This document shows positions 42,988 to 57,364 of a DNA stretch of 64,000 nucleotides, one piece after another (position 1 is the stretch's first letter; every line of letters begins with the position of its first letter). Below the pieces are notes generated by a model. That model was not told the origin of the DNA, made no database searches, and was given only the letters and a program-made list of their open reading frames with translations. Origin of the DNA: a virus; UHGV virus genome UHGV-0275551; one strand, written 5' to 3'. The position numbers and the translations under genes are program-made.

Positions 42988-43188
42988 TTAACATCTCTCC
43001 CAAGATTCTTTGTCTTCTGAAGGTTTTACACGTTGTCCTTCGTGGTCTACCCAGATGCACCCACAACCTTCACAGATTACTGGCATTGCATAACCAGCTT
43101 TAAAGTCATCTTCAGTGATAAGACCTTTTAAGTCACCTGTATCACGTCCGAACATTTCAATAGAACAGTCTTTGCAGAAGTCAGCCAT
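42988..43188 (-). CDS. hypothetical Cys-rich small protein
   Basis: 66-aa track ORF; CKDC...CEGCGC cysteine pairs. Confidence 0.4.
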   Translation of the reverse strand: MADFCKDCSIEMFGRDTGDLKGLITEDDFKAGYAMPVICEGCGCIWVDHEGQRVKPSEDKESWERC

Positions 43189-43731: not shown

Positions 43732-44004
43732 TTACTTCCTCGTTTTGAGAACTGCTAAGATTTCTTTAGAGTCTGGTAAGAACCATGTGTAGTGATTCTC
43801 TTTGATTTCTGGATGAGTGTCAACCTTTATTTTGCACTCTTTACCAACATGCTTAAGCTGTGCTGTGATACCTTGCATAAAGATGTGACACATTACATTA
43901 TCCATAATCGTAGGTAAGAAATCAATCCTCATGTAAGTATCTTTCGGTCTCGGTAGAAGTAAGTAACCTTCTGTGTAGAAAGTTTCATCATTACTTTGTG
44001 TCAT
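43732..44004 (-). CDS. hypothetical protein
   Basis: 90-aa track ORF, coupled to o-spanin gene. Confidence 0.4.
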   Translation of the reverse strand: MTQSNDETFYTEGYLLLPRPKDTYMRIDFLPTIMDNVMCHIFMQGITAQLKHVGKECKIKVDTHPEIKENHYTWFLPDSKEILAVLKTRK

Positions 44005-44270
44005 TACTGCTTATTCCCTAATAAAATCATATCAATAAGGTTATTAGCTTTGATTGTGCACTGGTAAAATCCATCACGATAGAACTCAAGGGCTGCTGCC
44101 ACATCGCTGCCAGTATTACCTTTGACAGTGAATCTTGACTCTTCTTGAGTGTACTTGTCACCCTCACTTACTTGGGAGTTTTTGAATGTACTGTTCACTT
44201 TGTTCGTTGAACACCCTGACATAATTATCAGTAACACAAACATTATAAAACTCTGGCTTAGTTTTTTCAT
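44004..44270 (-). CDS. o-spanin (outer-membrane lipoprotein), putative
   Basis: 88 aa; signal peptide with lipobox-like IMSGC; overlaps the 3' part of the i-spanin-like gene in another frame. Confidence 0.55.
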   Translation of the reverse strand: MKKLSQSFIMFVLLIIMSGCSTNKVNSTFKNSQVSEGDKYTQEESRFTVKGNTGSDVAAALEFYRDGFYQCTIKANNLIDMILLGNKQ

Positions 44271-44511
44271 ATGTTAGTACCTCTTTTGTATGCTTATTCT
44301 TAGCAAGCACATCTTTCAAATCATTTTTGTAATTGGTGCTGAGTGTGGCTAAACCTTCCTGATAAGCATCTTTGGCAACACTTATTAGTTTCTCGTTATT
44401 TAGCTCAGTTTCAGCAACTTGGTAGTCTCTGTAAGAGTATCCTCCCCAGACACCTGTCCCAACTAAGAAAACAATTATGAAAGTAGCTTGACAGAACTCT
44501 TTAAATGTCAT
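44164..44511 (-). CDS. i-spanin, putative
   Basis: 115 aa; N-terminal TM helix (FIIVFLVGTGVWGG) then coiled-coil-like domain; overlapped arrangement with lipoprotein gene. Confidence 0.55.
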   Translation of the reverse strand: MTFKEFCQATFIIVFLVGTGVWGGYSYRDYQVAETELNNEKLISVAKDAYQEGLATLSTNYKNDLKDVLAKNKHTKEVLTYEKTKPEFYNVCVTDNYVRVFNEQSEQYIQKLPSK

Positions 44512-45043: not shown

Positions 45044-45735
45044 TGTTTAACTAACATGGTTTTAATGTGTGGAAGGATTCTGTTTACCTTCTGAACATTC
45101 TTCTCTGTATCTTCTATAAAACATACTATATCAAAGTAAGGCAGAATGCAAGACTGAATCATCCTCACTTTCAAACTTTCTGCACTTATAGAGTTAGTCC
45201 CAAAACCACGCATAAAAAGCATGTAATCATGCTCTATGTAATGCCTTAAAAACATCTCAGTAGGTATTCTCTGAGATTCACCTCTTGCTGTCAATAGTCC
45301 AATGGCAGCGTGATTAGAAATTGCATCAATAATATTGAAAACATACGTTGGTTTTGCACTTACAGAGTCAAGCAAATTGGTGTACTGTGAAAATGACCCA
45401 TCAATCAGTTCCGTTGAGCAATCTTCGTGATTAAAATTTGTCAGAACACCATCAATATCTGCTAAGATGAGGTTACCTTTTTCTACAAGGTCTTTATTGA
45501 CTATGACTAAACTGTCACGTCTTACACCTATAGTTTGTCCGGTCTCTTTGTCCACAACGTTCACAATTGGTTCTGATGTGTGGAACTCTTCAAGTGAACA
45601 TACAACTTCTCTTGCAGTATCTTCAAAATCCCTGCACTGTTCTGGAGTCCATACACAGGAATCAAGACCTAACTCATGAGGATGCAAGTCATAAGCGTGG
45701 CACAGGACTTCATCAGACTTTCTTAATTTTTTCAT
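45040..45735 (-). CDS. HAD-superfamily hydrolase (nucleotidase-like), putative
   Basis: 231 aa; motif I LILADIDGVLTN (DxDGVL) typical of HAD phosphatases. Confidence 0.45.
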   Translation of the reverse strand: MKKLRKSDEVLCHAYDLHPHELGLDSCVWTPEQCRDFEDTAREVVCSLEEFHTSEPIVNVVDKETGQTIGVRRDSLVIVNKDLVEKGNLILADIDGVLTNFNHEDCSTELIDGSFSQYTNLLDSVSAKPTYVFNIIDAISNHAAIGLLTARGESQRIPTEMFLRHYIEHDYMLFMRGFGTNSISAESLKVRMIQSCILPYFDIVCFIEDTEKNVQKVNRILPHIKTMLVKH

Positions 45736-46261
45736 GATTTACCTTAGAAAGGTTTGTTGCAAATTCACATTGAGCGATAACTTTCATATTGTTATAGACA
45801 TCTTGAGAGTATTTCTTAGCTTTAGGGATTTTGTACGAATACCCAGCATTATATGATGCTAAAACTTTTTGTAAAGTCTTCTTTGACTTTGGCTGACCAT
45901 GCACCTTTGTCCAAAACTCAAGCTCTTTGTGCGTTTCCTTCGCAGCATAGTCAAAATCTTTTAAGAGTTTCTTTTTAGCCACACTAGGACTAATTTTGTT
46001 ACGCTTTACAACAGTCTTCAAGTGATTCTGGAAGATACCATAGTCATGGGTCTTTTTATTTTCTACCTTCAGACCTAACTCTGACTCTTGTAAGGCTATA
46101 GCTGCTAGAGTGATACCCCAACCTTTACCCATGTTATTCTCACCATACTGGTAAGCTTTTAACATGTTCACTTTTTGACTAATTGATAGCTCTGGGCAGT
46201 CAACTGCATAAGATAAGTGTGCTGTAAACATTAAGCACAAACCTAGAATCAATTTCTTCAT
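45713..46261 (-). CDS. secreted lytic transglycosylase-like protein
   Basis: 182 aa; signal peptide; AIALQESELG ... YGIFQ resembles the SLT catalytic ES / GLMQ motifs. Confidence 0.45.
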   Translation of the reverse strand: MKKLILGLCLMFTAHLSYAVDCPELSISQKVNMLKAYQYGENNMGKGWGITLAAIALQESELGLKVENKKTHDYGIFQNHLKTVVKRNKISPSVAKKKLLKDFDYAAKETHKELEFWTKVHGQPKSKKTLQKVLASYNAGYSYKIPKAKKYSQDVYNNMKVIAQCEFATNLSKVNHEKIKKV

Positions 46262-46324: not shown

Positions 46325-46348
46325 AAAAGGCCGCCGAAGCAGCCTTTT
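46325..46348 (-). terminator. hairpin terminator between rIIB-like and SLT-like genes
   Basis: aaaaggc / gcctttt stem with A-run and T-run flanks (bidirectional appearance). Confidence 0.4.
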
Positions 46349-46361
46349 AAGAAATTACTTA

Positions 46362-47471
46362 TTAGATTTCACGTTTACGTTGAGAGATGAGTTCACCAGC
46401 AGTGCCAACGATGACATGCAAAGCTTCAGTCTTACCGTCCCATGCTTCCAGCACTTTACGTTGATTATCAACGATTGCTGCAACTTCATAACGAGAGGAA
46501 CGCATCTTCATATCATTGTAATCAGTTGGAACAGATACAACATCTCGTGGATGTACGCGAACCTTCAGGATTGTATCACCTGAGAAGCAACGAACATAAT
46601 CCCAAGCACCAACATGAAGACCTTGAGAGCAAGTTACGTTACGGTTATTATCAACCATCCAACGTGGCATTTCTACAATGTTACCCAAATCATTAGGCAC
46701 TTTGTAGGTGTGAGAGTCAACCAACTTGCCTTCACGAGTAGAGACTTTCTTCCAACCAATGATGTAGCCTTCTTCATCAATTTCAACATCAAGGTGAGAT
46801 ACAAATCCCCAAAGTTGTTCTACAGAATCTTTAGATGGGTTTTCCATCAGTTTTTCGAAGAACATTACAAGTCGTTCAAAACCTTTATCGCCAGTTTTCA
46901 TCATGTGAAGAATACGGTCAACCAGAGTAGAACGCATCTCAACAGCACCGTAGAATAGCTTGTCGCCTTTGATTGTGATAGCACCCTGAGTGAAGTTTTC
47001 GATAGACTTACGAATGTTCATCAGTTCAAATGCTTTCTTGAACTCACCTTTCACAACATGAACTACAATCTCTTGATAGTTCGGATGAGTAGACTCAACA
47101 ATTTCAGATTCTGAACCATAAGTCATAATTACAGAATCACCAGTAATCATGTACTCAATCTTGTCATCTTTCTGCATAGCTTCGTGCAGTTTATTTACTG
47201 GAGCTTTCTGTACAGTGTCTTTAACGACCTTTTCAACTGGTTTGCCAGCTTTCTTTTTAAAAGTCTTAGCAACTTGTTTCAAAGTCTTCGTAGCTGGTGT
47301 AGAAGTTGCCTTCTTCTTGCCTTTTAAGGTTGCTTCATGACGCTCTACAGCACGACCAACTGAACGGGTTGAAGTATTGAACTTCTGTGCAATAGCTGTT
47401 TTAGTCAGCTTACCTTCTTTAACCAGTTTGTAAATTTCTGCGTCAATCTGTGCTTTAGTTTTAGTAGTCAT
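46362..47471 (-). CDS. rIIB: rIIB-like protein, putative
   Basis: 369-aa track ORF immediately downstream of the rIIA-like gene; assignment by synteny. Confidence 0.35.
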   Translation of the reverse strand: MTTKTKAQIDAEIYKLVKEGKLTKTAIAQKFNTSTRSVGRAVERHEATLKGKKKATSTPATKTLKQVAKTFKKKAGKPVEKVVKDTVQKAPVNKLHEAMQKDDKIEYMITGDSVIMTYGSESEIVESTHPNYQEIVVHVVKGEFKKAFELMNIRKSIENFTQGAITIKGDKLFYGAVEMRSTLVDRILHMMKTGDKGFERLVMFFEKLMENPSKDSVEQLWGFVSHLDVEIDEEGYIIGWKKVSTREGKLVDSHTYKVPNDLGNIVEMPRWMVDNNRNVTCSQGLHVGAWDYVRCFSGDTILKVRVHPRDVVSVPTDYNDMKMRSSRYEVAAIVDNQRKVLEAWDGKTEALHVIVGTAGELISQRKREI

Positions 47472-47550: not shown

Positions 47551-49917
47551 TTAATCGTAAATTGTTGTACCTTCTGGAACACATTTCACATTAAAGCCTA
47601 AAAACTTACTCACTTCGATAGGTGATACTTTATTCCAATCTAAGTGTGAAAGCAAGAAGTTTTCTTGTTTTCTTTTTGAAAGATAGTTTGTCAGCTTGAT
47701 AACCATGCGGTCACCTGCTTTTTTAATCTTTTTGTACAGTTTTGTGTCATTATCAAGGCATGACTTCAAATCCTGAAGAACACTGATAGTGTAAGTGTAT
47801 GCAAACGGTGCAGCCACATACTGAATCTTACCGAACATTGCCTCAACAGCATCTTCATTCCCTTCTAAGAAGATTGTCTTAATAGTATCCCTTGAATAAC
47901 AATACCCGCGAGAAATCTTCCTGTTATTGAACGTAAAGTTTCTGGCAATAATCCAACTGCTTGTAAGGTCGAGGACACCATCCATGTAGATGCGTGTCAT
48001 ATACCTGTTATGGTTAATCCAATGAACATCAGTTAAGCTGTCGTTCAAGAGCTTCTCATCTACTTCAATCCAGTCTTCTGGTATCTTTTTCCAATTTGCT
48101 TTTCGGAAAACATAGACTGTCTTGCCTGTAACATTAGCAACTGACTTAGCTACATCCTCTGGAGATGAGCAAAAACATCTACCATCAACTGTGTCACCTA
48201 CTGCCTTAATATAAAGCTGAGGTTCTTCAATTGTGTCTAAGTCTTCTGACACCTCTTTGTATGAAGCTTTAGTTTCTGCTGGAACAGCTTTCCAGAGTTT
48301 TACAACACCCCTTACAGCTTCTTTACGCTGATAGTGGTGTTCCTTATCAGACATCTTCACAATCTTTAACAAGCTTTTATCAAGTTTGTGTAGATTGATT
48401 AAATCATCTAACTCTTTTTCAGTCGAGAATACAAACACAATGCCATTGTATCTGTGGAACAGGCCTGACTCGTTAGCGTAGTCTCGACATGCACCACGCA
48501 AAATTTGATTGCGTCCTACAGTCTTCTCAGTACCGTTTTTATTGCGACGGTCATTAATCACGAACAAAAACTGTTCAATTTGGCTTTTACGCATTGCACC
48601 AAAGATATTGAACATGCTTGCCTCTTGAGTGTAGGAAAGTGCTGTTGCACGAATCTTACTCTCTAAAGAGTTGAACTTGACATAAGCAACTGGGTCATAA
48701 AGATAATCTACTTTAGGGATATTGTTCCCGTTCCTATCAACCTTAATATTGCCTTTACCGTCACGTTCATAAATGACTGAGCCGTCTTCTGCGTAGATAA
48801 TTCCACGACGAATGTTTAACAATTCTTCTTCCAGAGAATCAAGCTTAATGCCTCCCCACTCTAGCTTTGGACACACAGCATTAAACATCTCTCGTGAGTT
48901 CAAACGTAGCTCTGCATAAGCCTGTGCAGCATCCATGAGTGTAGGTTGGCTATTAACTTTCTTGATAACATCCTTTGTAATTGCTTCAGTTATCTTTTTG
49001 GTAGCCTCGATGATAACATTTTTTGTCGTATCATTCATCTGCAATGCTTCACGAGAAGCTGCTATAGCAACTGAACCAATAGGCATGTAGATGTTTACAA
49101 GGTCTACGCTCCTACGGAAAAACTCTGGCAAGACTTTGAAGAAATCATCACCAAGTAATGCTTCCATGTTCACTGGATAGGCAATATTACCCATCACCAC
49201 ATTAAACTCTGTCCTGTTACCACTAGAACGCCAGCTTTGCTTATGAATCATGGCATCGTAAACACCTTCTTCACGGGCAATGACGTTCATATCTGCTAAT
49301 ACATCGTCGTACTCAATATTACTTTCTGGTTTTACAGTGAAGTATGAGTACACATTTCCAGCTTCTTCAAAGAACTTTGAGATACGGTGGTCAGCAACTG
49401 CCACACGTACAGCTAAACCATTAGGTTCTTTTGTTGGGTTAGTGGTCAGTTTAGTTACTTGAGGGATACCATTCTCAAGATAAACAGAGTACTTATTAAC
49501 AACACCATCAACATAGCTAGATACTGTGAATGACTGAGCAATTGCAAATGGGGATTTTGAGCCGACACCCATTGCACCAATGTAGTCATTAGAGTCATTC
49601 TTCGTAGAAGCCCCGTAGTTTAGGTACAAACTCATAACTTTATCATGAGTCAATCCAGTTCCAAAATCACGAACTTCAAAGTAAGGCTCAAAACGAGTAG
49701 GTAAATGCACATGGAACGGGATGTTCTCTTTTCCAGCTTCTTTCTGAGCATCTACTGCGTTACATGACAGTTCACGAATCACTGCCCTTTCTTTAAAGGT
49801 ATATACACCAGAACTCAAAAGGCTGAACATCTCAGGTGTCATTGTAATCTGTGCTTGAGACGTCTCTAAAGAAGTTGAACTCTTAATCACTTCTGCGTGG
49901 TCATTTACCATGCGCAT
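47551..49917 (-). CDS. rIIA: rIIA-like protein with GHKL/Bergerat ATPase fold
   Basis: 788 aa; N-terminal RELSCNAVDAQ ... VRDFGTGLT ... GAMGVGSKS resembles HATPase_c motifs found in T4 rIIA. Confidence 0.55.
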   Translation of the reverse strand: MRMVNDHAEVIKSSTSLETSQAQITMTPEMFSLLSSGVYTFKERAVIRELSCNAVDAQKEAGKENIPFHVHLPTRFEPYFEVRDFGTGLTHDKVMSLYLNYGASTKNDSNDYIGAMGVGSKSPFAIAQSFTVSSYVDGVVNKYSVYLENGIPQVTKLTTNPTKEPNGLAVRVAVADHRISKFFEEAGNVYSYFTVKPESNIEYDDVLADMNVIAREEGVYDAMIHKQSWRSSGNRTEFNVVMGNIAYPVNMEALLGDDFFKVLPEFFRRSVDLVNIYMPIGSVAIAASREALQMNDTTKNVIIEATKKITEAITKDVIKKVNSQPTLMDAAQAYAELRLNSREMFNAVCPKLEWGGIKLDSLEEELLNIRRGIIYAEDGSVIYERDGKGNIKVDRNGNNIPKVDYLYDPVAYVKFNSLESKIRATALSYTQEASMFNIFGAMRKSQIEQFLFVINDRRNKNGTEKTVGRNQILRGACRDYANESGLFHRYNGIVFVFSTEKELDDLINLHKLDKSLLKIVKMSDKEHHYQRKEAVRGVVKLWKAVPAETKASYKEVSEDLDTIEEPQLYIKAVGDTVDGRCFCSSPEDVAKSVANVTGKTVYVFRKANWKKIPEDWIEVDEKLLNDSLTDVHWINHNRYMTRIYMDGVLDLTSSWIIARNFTFNNRKISRGYCYSRDTIKTIFLEGNEDAVEAMFGKIQYVAAPFAYTYTISVLQDLKSCLDNDTKLYKKIKKAGDRMVIKLTNYLSKRKQENFLLSHLDWNKVSPIEVSKFLGFNVKCVPEGTTIYD

Positions 49918-49945
49918 AATACTTTCCTCTTAGTTTACTGTTAAA

Positions 49946-50122
49946 TTACTTATTAAACATTTTACCAGAACCACCACACATAGGGCAACAACCTGCTCTT
50001 GTATACCCTTCCCCATTGCAGTAATCACACTTCTTGTACTCTGCATAGTACTTGCAAAGAAGGTAAACAAATACTGCTACGCTGCCAAGTGACAGTAAAA
50101 TTTCTATCCAATATGCTTGCAT
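49946..50122 (-). CDS. small membrane-anchored zinc-finger protein (not in track, 58 aa)
   Basis: hand-translated: MQAYWIEILLSLGSVAVFVYLLCKYYAEYKKCDYCNGEGYTRAGCCPMCGGSGKMFNK; GAGAGGTGA RBS; two CxxCxGxG motifs. Confidence 0.45.
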   Translation of the reverse strand: MQAYWIEILLSLGSVAVFVYLLCKYYAEYKKCDYCNGEGYTRAGCCPMCGGSGKMFNK

Positions 50123-50439
50123 GACTCACCTCTCATATTTTTGTAAAGGATAAAGCTTCTGTCATGGACGATACTTGTAGATACTGCAAAGTTACTTTCA
50201 AGCATCTGTTTGTTTGGATTGTAGAAGCTTTTTTTAAACTCGTCAAGCGCAAATTGGTGGTTGTCTGGAAGACCTTTTACACAAACTTTTATTGTGACTG
50301 CTGCTGCAATCTTACCATTCAGTTCTTCTTTAGCTGCTACTAAAATTTTGTTAAGGAACTTTTTACCATCTTCAGGTTTCTTAATATTCTCCCAACGTTC
50401 TTCTAAGACAATGTTGATGTTCATCTCTTTGATTTTCAT
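50104..50439 (-). CDS. hypothetical protein
   Basis: 111-aa track ORF; GGAGAAG RBS after the upstream terminator. Confidence 0.45.
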   Translation of the reverse strand: MKIKEMNINIVLEERWENIKKPEDGKKFLNKILVAAKEELNGKIAAAVTIKVCVKGLPDNHQFALDEFKKSFYNPNKQMLESNFAVSTSIVHDRSFILYKNMRGESCKHIG

Positions 50440-50451
50440 AATCTTCTCCAG

Positions 50452-50479
50452 AAATTAAAAAGGCTCCCGTAGGAGCCTC
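50452..50479 (-). terminator. rho-independent terminator after the NadV-like gene
   Basis: aggctcc-cgt-aggagcct hairpin followed on minus strand by TTTTAATTT. Confidence 0.55.
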
Positions 50480-50492
50480 TTATCATATACTT

Positions 50493-52274
50493 TTAAAGCT
50501 GCTTGTCAATATTATTTCGAATATCACCAAGAGTTGTGTAACCGTACTGCTCAGAGTCGCTAAAGACTAAACGTAAAGCACAAGCTGGATGTTCAAGTGC
50601 ATCTGCAAAGCTCTGGAATCCATAGCCATCTACAGCTTTCAAATTCTCACCATCCCACATAGGTGCTACACCACCAAAGGCAGATTTCTTAACACCACTA
50701 TCTGTTTTAGGGTCTTTTGCAAGCATAATCTCTTTGCCACCAATGCTTGCAAGAGTTGCTTTGACAGCAAATGCAAAGGTGTCACGAGTCATGTACTGGT
50801 AAGTGTAAGAGCCTACACCAAACACTACGTTAGAGCTTGCAAAACCCATTTCATACAGACGCTTCAGGATTTCGTTTGCACGTTCCAACGTGATAGAGTC
50901 ACCATAGATAAGTCCAATGTGCTCATCCAGTACCTTAAAACCTTTAGAGTTGATAGTTCCTCCAAAGATGTTATACAAGGTCTTAATAGCTCCATCAATC
51001 TCTGCTACAGGGCGTGTTACAACGTTTGCAGAACCAACCATATAAGCGTTCTTCAACATCACTGTATCAGCAACTTCAAAGTCTTCTCTGTCAACAACCA
51101 TTTCGTAGCCTTCTGACAGTAGCCATCCAGCAATACCATAGCTGATGTTTTCAAGCTTCATGTTCAGAACAGCATTCAGCATTGTGTCACTGGCTTCCAG
51201 ATTGCTTAGGTGCTCATAATAAGCCTTTTTAGCACACTCTAAGTGGATTGCTTTATAACCTGTGACAATGTGTACAGGGTCTCCAGAGTCAGGACGAATT
51301 ACCAGTTTGCCATCACGTTCCATAATTTCTTTACGGAGTGCTGGTAAGATTTCTGACACAGTTCTCCAGAAGTTATAAGTGTCTGAAACAACACTTGCAA
51401 TACCAGTTGGATAAGTTTCTGTTAAGAAGCGACGGAAGGTTTGCAACTCACCTTTAAAGCGTCTTTCTTCTTCAACCAACTCATTACCACCTTCCCAAGC
51501 AATGTTTGCACACATTACAGAGTGTTCAGTGGCTGGTACAGAACCACCAATATCAGAGACTGGGTAAGACTGTCCGTAGATGCGTTTAGCTGTATATACA
51601 GCAGGGAAGCTATCAGTCCCTTTAAAGCTGGTTAAGTGGCCTACAGCGTTAAATGCGTCATCAGTAAAGCCGGACATACCACGCATAGCAAAGTCATGGC
51701 ACTGATAAGGTAAATGTAAGTCATTGTCGCAAGTAAGGTCAGCCCACTTCTTACAGATGCGTTTATAATGCAATGCAATAGTTGCAATGGTACAAGCCTT
51801 CCAAATCTCAGCAGAGAAAGCATCTTCCAGATATCCCGCTACCCAATGGAAACCTGAAACAGTGTTCTGGAAGACAATCATTGGTACACGCATAGGAACA
51901 ACTGTACCTTCTTCTACAGCGTATACTTCAACTGGTAGATAACCTAAGTCGTGAAGTGCTTCCCAATGCTCTCGACCGATAGCATCTTTACCCAGAACAC
52001 CATTCATGACTTCTAAGATTTCATCAATGGCTTCTTTTTTATCACGTTCAAAGAAAGTGGCGTTCCAGTGGTCTATCAAGTAATCTTTAACGAAACGTTG
52101 AATACCAAAAGCTACTACACCATCAATTGCTAAGGGGCTGTTAAACCACTTATCACTACGTGGTGTCAGGTTCAACATAAGATATTGCGTAGCATCTGGA
52201 TACTGATATATATGTGATGCCTTGTAAGCATCTGCATTAAGACCTGCTGGTACTGCGTAAAGTGACTTACTCAT
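50493..52274 (-). CDS. nadV: nicotinamide phosphoribosyltransferase-like protein (NadV/NAMPT family)
   Basis: 593-aa track ORF; overall resemblance to NAMPT/NadV-type phosphoribosyltransferases; adjacent to Prs-like gene. Confidence 0.55.
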   Translation of the reverse strand: MSKSLYAVPAGLNADAYKASHIYQYPDATQYLMLNLTPRSDKWFNSPLAIDGVVAFGIQRFVKDYLIDHWNATFFERDKKEAIDEILEVMNGVLGKDAIGREHWEALHDLGYLPVEVYAVEEGTVVPMRVPMIVFQNTVSGFHWVAGYLEDAFSAEIWKACTIATIALHYKRICKKWADLTCDNDLHLPYQCHDFAMRGMSGFTDDAFNAVGHLTSFKGTDSFPAVYTAKRIYGQSYPVSDIGGSVPATEHSVMCANIAWEGGNELVEEERRFKGELQTFRRFLTETYPTGIASVVSDTYNFWRTVSEILPALRKEIMERDGKLVIRPDSGDPVHIVTGYKAIHLECAKKAYYEHLSNLEASDTMLNAVLNMKLENISYGIAGWLLSEGYEMVVDREDFEVADTVMLKNAYMVGSANVVTRPVAEIDGAIKTLYNIFGGTINSKGFKVLDEHIGLIYGDSITLERANEILKRLYEMGFASSNVVFGVGSYTYQYMTRDTFAFAVKATLASIGGKEIMLAKDPKTDSGVKKSAFGGVAPMWDGENLKAVDGYGFQSFADALEHPACALRLVFSDSEQYGYTTLGDIRNNIDKQL

Positions 52275-52290: not shown

Positions 52291-52782
52291 TTAGTTATGT
52301 CTTGCAAACTCACCATGAAGTTCTATTCGCTTTTTAATTACAGCTTCTTTTGCTTCTTCTACCGTTTTAAATCTTCCACAAAAGTATTCTTTATGGTAAA
52401 GCATGACTCTTGCTTTGTAAAGACCTGTTTGTTTACAAAAACTTACACCCTTCACACCAGTTTTATTATTCTTGTATATACCCCTATTCCTCTGATTTTG
52501 TGACTTTGTGCTAAGTCTTAAATTATCCAACTTATTATTAGATTTATCAAGGTCTATGTGGTCTATCTCATATCCACTTGGTATCTCACCTCCAGACATA
52601 ATCCATGCAATATTATGTGCATAGTACCTCTTCTTATTTATCTGGACTTGGATATAACCCTTCTTAGACCTTGTGCCAGCCACATTACCAGCAATAGCGG
52701 TACTGCAAAGGGTTACTCTCCAAATTAATAAACCTGTATCTGGTTCATATATTAGGTATCTTTCAAAATAACCCTTATTCAT
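52291..52782 (-). CDS. HNH homing endonuclease with AP2-like DNA-binding domain
   Basis: 163 aa; YEIDHIDLDKSNNKLDNLR HNH core and KTGVKGVSFCKQTGLYKARV AP2-like segment; inserted between NadV-like and Prs-like genes. Confidence 0.6.
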   Translation of the reverse strand: MNKGYFERYLIYEPDTGLLIWRVTLCSTAIAGNVAGTRSKKGYIQVQINKKRYYAHNIAWIMSGGEIPSGYEIDHIDLDKSNNKLDNLRLSTKSQNQRNRGIYKNNKTGVKGVSFCKQTGLYKARVMLYHKEYFCGRFKTVEEAKEAVIKKRIELHGEFARHN

Positions 52783-56755: not shown

Positions 56756-57364
56756 TTATTTTTTCTTACAATTGTCAAAATGATATCGAGTCATGTTACC
56801 AGCACCACCAGTCATACCACAATGAGGGCAAGTTTTCTTTTTCTTTGGCTTTTTTCCGGCTTCTGACATCTTCTTCCTTGTTTCTATAGACCTTTTACAA
56901 CCTTTTGATTTTGTATTGCCTATTTGAGATTCTCCTAATCGTCTTCGATGTTCTTCAGTGAAAACCCTACCTTTATTCACAATAGATAAAGCTTTCGAGT
57001 TCAAAGCTCTTACCTTTTCATAGTCTCTGGATGATATTTTCCTATCTAGGCCATCATGAGCTAACCTGTTCCATGCAAACCATAACTTATGATTGTTTGG
57101 ATACATCTTAACCAGTAATTTATGAGCTATATAATGCTCTCTAGGTGTAAGCAAAGCAATATTATCTCCACTAATTTTATCGCCACCTAGACATACCGGT
57201 ATGATATGGTGTCTTTCATAACCCTTACCTTGACATTTGTAGTATGTAAGAGGCACACCCCTTTCAGAATGTGCCTTCTTAATAATTGCATTATATATTA
57301 GTTCGTAATTCATTTGTATGCTACATAGAAACCCTATCCTTAATTTCTGCCATCTTAGCGTCAT
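56756..57364 (-). CDS. HNH homing endonuclease with C-terminal zinc ribbon
   Basis: 202-aa track ORF; ERHHIIPVCLGGDKISGDNIALLTPREHYIAHK HNH core; CPHCG motif; 5' end overlaps nrdD 3' end, so true start could be the internal ATG at 57313. Confidence 0.55.
   Translation of the reverse strand: MTLRWQKLRIGFLCSIQMNYELIYNAIIKKAHSERGVPLTYYKCQGKGYERHHIIPVCLGGDKISGDNIALLTPREHYIAHKLLVKMYPNNHKLWFAWNRLAHDGLDRKISSRDYEKVRALNSKALSIVNKGRVFTEEHRRRLGESQIGNTKSKGCKRSIETRKKMSEAGKKPKKKKTCPHCGMTGGAGNMTRYHFDNCKKK

Follow-up and report, generated by a model that had tools for sequence, protein, structure and literature searches.

A small gene under strong purifying selection

The 64,000-nucleotide stretch of UHGV virus genome UHGV-0275551 analyzed here, hereafter the window, carries on its minus strand a 58-codon gene that lies between a rIIA-like gene and the next open reading frame (ORF) and whose product combines an N-terminal hydrophobic helix with two CxxCxGxG motifs. 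The elements of this gene are the following:

49946..50122, minus strand: coding sequence of 58 codons (ATG...TAA) for a putative membrane-anchored zinc-knuckle peptide, equivalent to Felix01p243 / wV8 gp138-type / phrog_3931
50126..50134, minus strand: Shine-Dalgarno sequence GAGAGGTGA, at -12..-4 from the ATG and within the 3' end of the upstream ORF
50051..50113, minus strand: predicted hydrophobic transmembrane helix (codons 4-24), in which a conserved E7-x3-S11 motif is placed N-terminally and K24 C-terminally
49964..50029, minus strand: two CxxCxGxG motifs (CDYCNGEG ... C-CPMCGGSG; codons 32-53), which with C32, C35, C46 and C49 as predicted ligands would make up one Zn(Cys)4 knuckle

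An initial annotation of the window had proposed at this place an unlisted gene for a membrane-anchored, double zinc-finger peptide preceded by a strong ribosome-binding site. The ORF is intact, translation of the minus strand from 50122 to 49946 yielding the 58-amino acid peptide MQAYWIEILLSLGSVAVFVYLLCKYYAEYKKCDYCNGEGYTRAGCCPMCGGSGKMFNK, and the AGGTGA of the Shine-Dalgarno sequence matches the anti-Shine-Dalgarno complement, in agreement with a strong ribosome-binding site. A GGAG/GAGG sequence is present at an equal distance in the genera Mooglevirus and Suspvirus, despite the differing codons that it overlaps there. The gene was unlisted in the sense that it was absent from the 60-amino acid ORF track on which the initial annotation drew, but it had been catalogued before in GenBank, RefSeq and PHROGs, and hence it is not a new gene. 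Matches to the window region occur in 255 phage records, and its identity to Escherichia coli O157 typing phage 8 (Felixounavirus wV8) is 99.6%; the coding sequence is already annotated in the near-identical typing phage 8 record (AKE46287.1), in the RefSeq record of typing phage 1 and in phage KhF2, and the peptide matches the phrog_3931 profile over its full length (E=5.1e-33, with residues 1-58 aligned to positions 1-59 of a 59-position profile). The remark that such a gene is easily missed applies to the few records that omit it (e.g. the RB49-like homolog in MT478991), whereas more than 200 public phage genomes annotate the coding sequence, as a 'putative membrane protein' in KhF2, as a 'heat shock protein' in a single record, and as a 'hypothetical protein' in others. 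In published genome tables it appears as "hypothetical membrane protein Felix01p243" (PMC4837284). As to function, literature searches on phrog_3931, Felix01p243, agp080 (the ortholog in phage SUSP1) and Felix O1 toxicity screens yielded only genome tables and one CRISPRi-ART fitness call.

Conservation in related phages had been suggested as a check on the gene, and the reading frame is indeed kept across relatives. By tblastn the peptide was found in 259 phage records, with protein identities of more than 90% in Felixounavirus and of 45-56% in Mooglevirus and Suspvirus. Among 26 distinct ortholog nucleotide sequences, the ratio of nonsynonymous to synonymous substitution rates (dN/dS) was 0.067 in Felixounavirus and 0.23 in Mooglevirus/Suspvirus, and it stayed at 0.064 when the codons overlapping the upstream gene were removed; variable sites were distributed 7/3/27 over the three codon positions, and every alternative frame over the gene contained stops in 26/26 sequences. 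Moreover, CDYCNGEG and CPMCGGSG are the sole CxxCxGxG occurrences in the six frames of the 64-kb window, the mean in 100 shuffled versions being 0.18 per window. A scan of the peptide region against Rfam gave no family at E<0.1, and an RNA element as the explanation of the conservation was rejected on these grounds. The gene is genuine and is under strong purifying selection. A size under the usual ORF-calling thresholds, the 19 nt shared with the upstream gene and the omission of the ORF from some records would fit an ORF that arose by chance, or conservation for some other cause, e.g. an RNA element or the overlapping upstream gene, but that explanation is already effectively refuted by the substitution pattern outside the overlap, by the closed alternative frames, by the Cys and Gly residues that stay invariant between genera and by a motif pair far above chance expectation.

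Frameshifted copies of the gene were observed in phiWec177 (P0003), in Salmonella phage NJ12 (P0004) and in three Logan assemblies (P0005-P0007), each as a singleton cluster, compared with hundreds of intact sequences, and with the shift at different positions. They enter an alternative frame (window 49930..50070, minus strand) that is open over the last 46 codons, giving 63-amino acid products without the knuckle, and they may be either sequencing errors or true loss-of-function variants.

A second clade was reached via a weak match to RB49-like phages of the genus Krischvirus, about 59 records of which contain a 52-amino acid homolog, MIIENLVSVFIIALFVIMALPLKKCKHCNGTGLCGDGCCAHCHGSGKVSIIK, the peptides of this genus spanning 52-55 amino acids. 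The best PHROG of this homolog is phrog_3931 (E=4.6e-9), and on this comparison the RB49-like Krischvirus peptides belong to the phrog_3931 family, an assignment added by the present analysis. RB49, JSE and ECD7 list the homolog under the label 'hypothetical protein'; in vB_EcoM_011D4 it is unannotated and lies as follows:

L008:1495-1653, plus strand (= MT478991.1 complement(144956..145114)): Krischvirus homolog, with a transmembrane helix and CKHCNGTG...CCAHCHGSG

In this T4-like clade the peptide gene always overlaps the 3' end of an NrdH/glutaredoxin-like gene by 11 nt and precedes a DUF7570 (55.2-like) gene. The family spans the Ounavirinae (three genera) and the RB49-like Straboviridae, each probably coupled translationally to a different upstream gene, and metagenomic relatives of 53-59 amino acids have the same build of transmembrane helix plus knuckle. 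Bacterial and archaeal genomes gave knuckle-level matches only, none with a transmembrane helix plus a knuckle. As orthologs, the distant IMG/VR matches (L034-L042) and all 39 bacterial/archaeal genome matches were rejected, since their similarity is confined to the knuckle, which in them is part of DnaJ or of large multi-domain proteins. The family looks phage-specific.

Predicted transmembrane helix and zinc knuckle

The N-terminal membrane-type helix proposed by the initial annotation is supported both by hydrophobicity, the best 17-residue window (residues 6-22) having a mean Kyte-Doolittle value of 2.26, and by the AF2 model of the peptide (pLDDT 78), which consists of a helix at residues 3-27 and a small beta knuckle. 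Near the start of the helix E7 and S11 are invariant, and the E-x3-S/T pattern is conserved in both clades. Because of this conservation and of a dN/dS of 0.07 in the transmembrane half of the peptide, the helix appears to be more than a mere anchor, and its conserved polar positions suggest a specific intramembrane contact.

With regard to topology, neither Lys nor Arg is present in the N-terminal tail, which bears an acidic residue, in 15/15 family members, and all Lys and Arg residues, 2-6 per member (15/15), are located C-terminal to the helix, the C-terminal tail being usually basic. Because of this charge distribution, the positive-inside rule predicts an N-out/C-in orientation that would place the knuckle in the cytoplasm. 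Thiolate zinc sites require a reducing cytoplasm.

The DnaJ-type motifs CDYCNGEG and CPMCGGSG are present as first described, and C32, C35, C46, C49, G37, G39, G51 and G53 are invariant in both clades (G39 apart from the SUSP1 copy discussed below). C45, the first Cys of a 'CC' doublet, is nearly invariant, with Pro in its place in one relative (P0010), and C23 is not conserved. The 'double' zinc finger of the initial annotation goes too far, however, because two motifs with the CxxC-x10-CxxC spacing would form one Zn(Cys)4 site, as in Anti-TRAP, whose function depends on the one zinc bound by its two CXXCXGXG motifs (PMC2896485). By this analogy the peptide most likely carries a single predicted Zn(Cys)4 site rather than two fingers, and a membrane-anchored zinc peptide is a well-supported prediction.

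When the single peptide sequence was compared with Pfam, all matches fell under the gathering thresholds (e.g. DUF5351, E=0.0024), including that to DnaJ_CXXCXGXG (PF00684; 15.8 bits versus a cut-off of 32.7, E=0.017). The family profile, in turn, matched the cysteine-rich domain of E. coli DnaJ (1exk) with E=8.8e-12, each half of the domain being matched, DNAJA3 with E=1.7e-6, and Anti-TRAP (3lcz) with E=0.0019 in an ungapped alignment of query residues 30-53 on chain residues 10-33. The best Protein Data Bank (PDB) matches of the AF2 model were the Anti-TRAP structures 3ld0, 3lcz and 2bx9, with root mean square deviations of 1.0-1.1 A over 28 columns and 28-36% identity.

The peptide can therefore be compared with three known systems. 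Anti-TRAP (AT, RtpA) of Bacillus subtilis and Bacillus licheniformis is a 53-amino acid protein with two CxxCxGxG motifs in the same spacing, and it provides the best fold match (1.0 A, up to 36% identity). AT is nevertheless soluble, and a C-terminal helix mediates its assembly into trimers and dodecamers (PMC2896485). In the peptide, by contrast, a predicted transmembrane helix is located at the N-terminus, only 9 residues follow its last Cys, and its AF2 model is without a C-terminal helix; no match to the Pfam Anti-TRAP family was obtained from its sequence. Anti-TRAP works purely by binding and blocking another protein, tryptophan-activated TRAP, a Bacillus protein that to our knowledge is lacking in enterobacteria, the group to which the phage hosts belong. 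With the cysteine-rich domain of DnaJ/Hsp40 the peptide shares the motif type, as the initial annotation had recognized, but it falls outside the DnaJ family: whereas DnaJ has four motifs and two zinc centers in a V-shaped domain inserted in a J-domain chaperone, the peptide has two repeats (starting at residues 32 and 46) and lacks the G/F region and the C-terminal domains, and Pfam gave no match to a J domain in its 58 amino acids. The third system comprises J-less membrane DnaJ-like zinc-finger proteins of plastids, among them FIP (FtsH5-interacting protein, At5g02160) of Arabidopsis. Mature FIP combines one membrane-anchoring helix with a C4 finger at the C-terminus that contains two CXXCXGXG motifs and whose predicted orientation is stromal, i.e. 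equivalent to cytoplasmic, and it binds a membrane protein, the FtsH5 protease (PMC5915565). FIP differs in being a eukaryotic, plastid-targeted protein with a transit peptide that is reported only in land plants; compared here by description only, its resemblance to the peptide is likely a convergence from a common DnaJ-type module. The peptide's own family is that of phrog_3931, Felix01p243 and SUSP1 agp080, with full-length matches and identical synteny. It is thus a phrog_3931 member outside the DnaJ and Anti-TRAP families, which groups with the small zinc-knuckle proteins of the J-less DnaJ-like/Anti-TRAP-like type and whose architecture is most like that of FIP.

Gene neighborhood and expression

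The peptide gene is embedded in the following set of features:

50482..50509, minus strand: sigma-70-like promoter (TTGACA-16-TATGAT, 11/12) at the NAMPT gene end, kept in all three Ounavirinae genera
50458..50481, minus strand: terminator-like hairpin AAGAGGCTCCTACGGGAGCCTTTT, which follows immediately on the promoter -10; the annotation of phage Mordin gives a terminator at the equivalent place
50104..50439, minus strand: 111-amino acid ORF (phrog_4262), whose final 19 nt overlap the start of the peptide gene
47551..49917, minus strand: rIIA homolog of 788 amino acids (phrog_612, E=1e-188), with its own Shine-Dalgarno sequence, 28 nt downstream of the peptide gene
46362..47471, minus strand: rIIB homolog of 369 amino acids, the last gene ahead of the next strong terminator (46325..46348)

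The gene order PRPP synthetase, (HNH), NAMPT, (optional small ORF), 111-amino acid ORF, peptide, rIIA, rIIB is fixed in Felixounavirus, Mooglevirus and Suspvirus. The 111-amino acid ORF has the same distribution as the peptide (258 records), and both the 19-nt overlap and the position between phrog_4262 and rIIA are kept in the three genera and in one metagenomic contig; the 111-amino acid ORF is probably a translationally coupled partner of the peptide. Not only the promoter of this unit but also the Shine-Dalgarno sequence of the peptide gene is conserved in all three genera, and the hairpin at 50458..50481 would terminate the NAMPT transcript. Because the 28-nt gap leaves no room for a promoter, rIIA would be co-transcribed with the peptide gene in Felixounavirus; in Mooglevirus and Suspvirus there is an extra promoter between the two genes. 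The reverse transcription PCR table of the Felix O1 study shows that the flanking genes 130 and 1 (rIIA) peak at 25 min and places them in the 'middle' class, gene 131 being outside that table, and the peptide product is absent from the virion proteins of that study (PMC3185647).

The protein encoded by the 111-amino acid ORF contains no CxxC and is no redoxin. It gave no Pfam match, and its AF2 model had a pLDDT of 67; the best PDB folds, C-terminal domains of IF3 (E of at least 0.14, TM-score about 0.5), were not significant and were rejected as a lead to its function. A further promoter-like site, TTGACG-17-TACAAT, was observed at window 50218-50246 (minus strand), about 124 nt upstream of the peptide ATG, and Mooglevirus and Suspvirus carry TTGACC-17-TATAAT (11/12) at the same position. 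This site coincides with the best-conserved protein segment of the 111-amino acid ORF (ALDEF..FYNPNK), and its conservation could reflect coding, promoter function, or both.

An HNH homing-endonuclease gene (window 52291-52782, minus strand; phrog_99, E=5e-68) is located between the PRPP synthetase and NAMPT genes, and it is present at that position in SUSP1 and in a metagenomic contig (L045) and absent in Silverhawkium, Mordin and mistaenkt. Between NAMPT and the 111-amino acid gene, typing phage 1 (L002:2546-2890, minus strand), typing phage 15 and fjerdesal contain a 350-bp insertion with a 114-amino acid ORF. The possibility that this ORF of typing phage 1 is a duplicate of the 111-amino acid partner was rejected, the two being unrelated (E=0.11). 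In Mooglevirus and Suspvirus a different ORF of 71 amino acids (phrog_2375) occupies the same slot, which is hence a variable insertion site. Finally, a 95.7-kb contig from Logan/ENA (P0176) encodes a 116-amino acid protein in which the N-terminus of PRPP synthetase is joined to the C-terminal half of the 111-amino acid protein, which points to a natural deletion (or a misassembly) of most of prs, HNH, NAMPT and the start of the 111-amino acid gene; the upstream overlap region of the peptide gene is retained in this contig.

Possible role of the peptide

In a CRISPRi-ART screen of SUSP1, the ortholog AVU07_agp080 (57142..57321, phrog_3931) obtained a score of 1.05 with 7 guides and was classified as 'Not Fit', as were the 111-amino acid gene and rIIB, and rIIA was 'Semi-Fit' with 1.83; the authors report false negatives in the screen (PMC11879866). 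Because the SUSP1 ortholog is 'Not Fit' and a few database entries are frameshifted copies, these data indicate that the peptide gene is accessory, i.e. maintained in nature and dispensable on the laboratory host.

The best overall explanation, towards which the balance of the evidence tips modestly, is that the peptide is an accessory, membrane-tethered, protein-binding zinc knuckle. According to this proposal, the gene would be transcribed by the host RNA polymerase from the sigma-70-type promoter as one unit with the translationally coupled 111-amino acid ORF and with rIIA and rIIB. Residues ~4-24 would insert as one transmembrane helix, N-out/C-in, in the inner membrane (a bitopic protein), and on the cytoplasmic side residues 32-53, with their two CxxCxGxG motifs, would form a single Zn(Cys)4 knuckle, the module being that of Anti-TRAP and one half of the DnaJ cysteine-rich domain. 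The knuckle would then provide a protein-binding surface tethered at the membrane by the helix, by means of which the peptide may recruit a host or phage protein near the membrane, or else sequester or inhibit it. A protein-binding role is proposed because the characterized relatives of the module all bind proteins, with TRAP as the target of Anti-TRAP, clients and DnaK as those of the DnaJ zinc domain and FtsH5 as that of FIP. A specific membrane partner is suggested by the purifying selection that acts on the helix (E-x3-S/T) as well as on the knuckle. The benefit to the phage would be restricted to certain conditions or hosts, with basic lytic growth being independent of the peptide.

Several observations weigh against this proposal. 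The domain being tiny, its fold similarity comes with weak Foldseek E-values (0.14-0.65), and the single-sequence Pfam matches are sub-threshold. The segment after the helix is acidic in Mooglevirus and Suspvirus (net charge of the C-terminal domain -2 to +1), which leaves the lack of N-terminal Lys/Arg and the basic tail as the main grounds for the predicted topology. The SUSP1 ortholog (L007:2501-2680, plus strand; ALH46971.1) carries the substitution G39D at the otherwise invariant last Gly of motif 1 (CDECEGSD), and the 'Not Fit' call may therefore transfer incompletely to the present phage. Furthermore, the model of the 111-amino acid partner offers no functional lead, and a redox role would agree equally well with the near-invariant extra Cys45 and with the NrdH-like redoxin to which the gene is coupled in the T4-like clade.

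Such a role, in which the CxxC pairs and Cys45 would act in thiol-disulfide exchange or redox sensing, either in the periplasm or with a phage redoxin, nevertheless seems unlikely to us. It would account for the 'CC' doublet, which lies outside the canonical DnaJ motif, and for the invariable 11-nt overlap with the NrdH/glutaredoxin-like gene; the acidic segment after the helix would allow translocation; and the plant membrane DnaJ-like zinc-finger proteins LQY1 and CYO1 have protein disulfide isomerase activity. However, the Pro that replaces Cys45 in P0010 indicates that the fifth Cys is dispensable, the invariant glycines are a signature of zinc-knuckle geometry unlike that of redox CxxC sites, the charge distribution favors a cytoplasmic C-terminal domain, and in the Ounavirinae clade the gene is coupled to a protein that is not a redoxin.

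Equally doubtful is a function of the peptide as a partner of the rII system, acting with the membrane-associated proteins rIIA and rIIB against Rex-type abortive infection or in lysis timing, e.g. as a membrane tether or regulator of rIIA. The gene is found directly upstream of rIIA in 258/258 Ounavirinae records and in Felixounavirus would share its mRNA, the score of agp080 is the highest among the non-rIIA neighbors, and knock-down of rIIA/rIIB in SUSP1 lowers plating on lambda RexAB hosts (PMC11879866). On the other hand, in the T4-like clade the peptide gene lies beside nrdH and far from rIIA, Mooglevirus and Suspvirus have the separate promoter mentioned above, and the raised score of agp080 may be a polar effect on rIIA. 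In T4 itself an unrelated soluble protein, rIIA.1 (phrog_1683), occupies that position; being a Cys-free, highly charged soluble helix, it was rejected as a positional analogue of the peptide.

The peptide, possibly with its 111-amino acid partner, could be a phage-encoded, membrane-tethered inhibitor or adaptor of a host inner-membrane machine, a possibility to which we assign rather little credence. Candidate targets would be the FtsH protease and a membrane-associated abortive infection system countered together with rIIA/rIIB. FtsH is a candidate target because of the analogy with plant FIP-FtsH5 and with lambda CIII. If this were true, the family would represent a new class of small zinc-knuckle anti-host or anti-defense effectors common to Felix O1-like and RB49-like phages.

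It is very improbable that the peptide is the missing holin, or an antiholin or other lysis-timing protein, of the Felix O1-like phages. Its size, single transmembrane helix and basic C-terminal tail are typical of holins, and its gene shares a region with rIIA/B, at a distance of about 5.5 kb from a spanin-like pair, in the region of which (44004-44511) no holin gene was identified:

44004-44511, minus strand: spanin-like pair, formed by a 115-amino acid ORF with an N-terminal transmembrane helix (44164..44511) and an overlapping 88-amino acid ORF with the lipobox IMSGC (44004..44270)

Against a lysis function, however, the SUSP1 ortholog was 'Not Fit' with 7 guides, while holin loss should abolish plaques, the flanking genes belong to the 'middle' and not to the late class, and the RB49-like peptide gene is located beside nrdH, away from the lysis genes. 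We know of no established holin with an invariant Cys4/Gly4 zinc knuckle. Published descriptions of Felix O1-like phages give no identified holin (PMC3185647; PMC4837284), and none has been recognized beside their endolysin gene.

For gene finding the result has little practical weight, the gene being already in databases and its ortholog being lost without clear cost in one genome-wide screen. What is added here is a testable description, namely a transmembrane helix plus an Anti-TRAP-like Zn(Cys)4 knuckle predicted to be cytoplasmic, for a family labeled so far as 'hypothetical (membrane) protein'. Felix O1-type phages serve in Salmonella typing and biocontrol, and we hypothesize that host-specific accessory factors such as the one proposed could help to explain differences in host range and defense evasion.

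Two other ORFs of the window were also noted. A 66-amino acid ORF at 42988-43188 (minus strand), MADFCKDCSIEMFG...VICEGCGCIWV..., lacks a hydrophobic helix and has two CxxC pairs separated by about 35 residues, and it may encode a soluble zinc-ribbon protein. Downstream of rIIB, a 182-amino acid ORF (45713-46261, minus strand) corresponds to what the SUSP1 table lists as phrog_600; its N-terminus, MKKLILGLCLMFTAHLSYA, is signal-peptide-like, and its segment ...ALQESELG...GIFQN... presumably resembles lytic transglycosylases.

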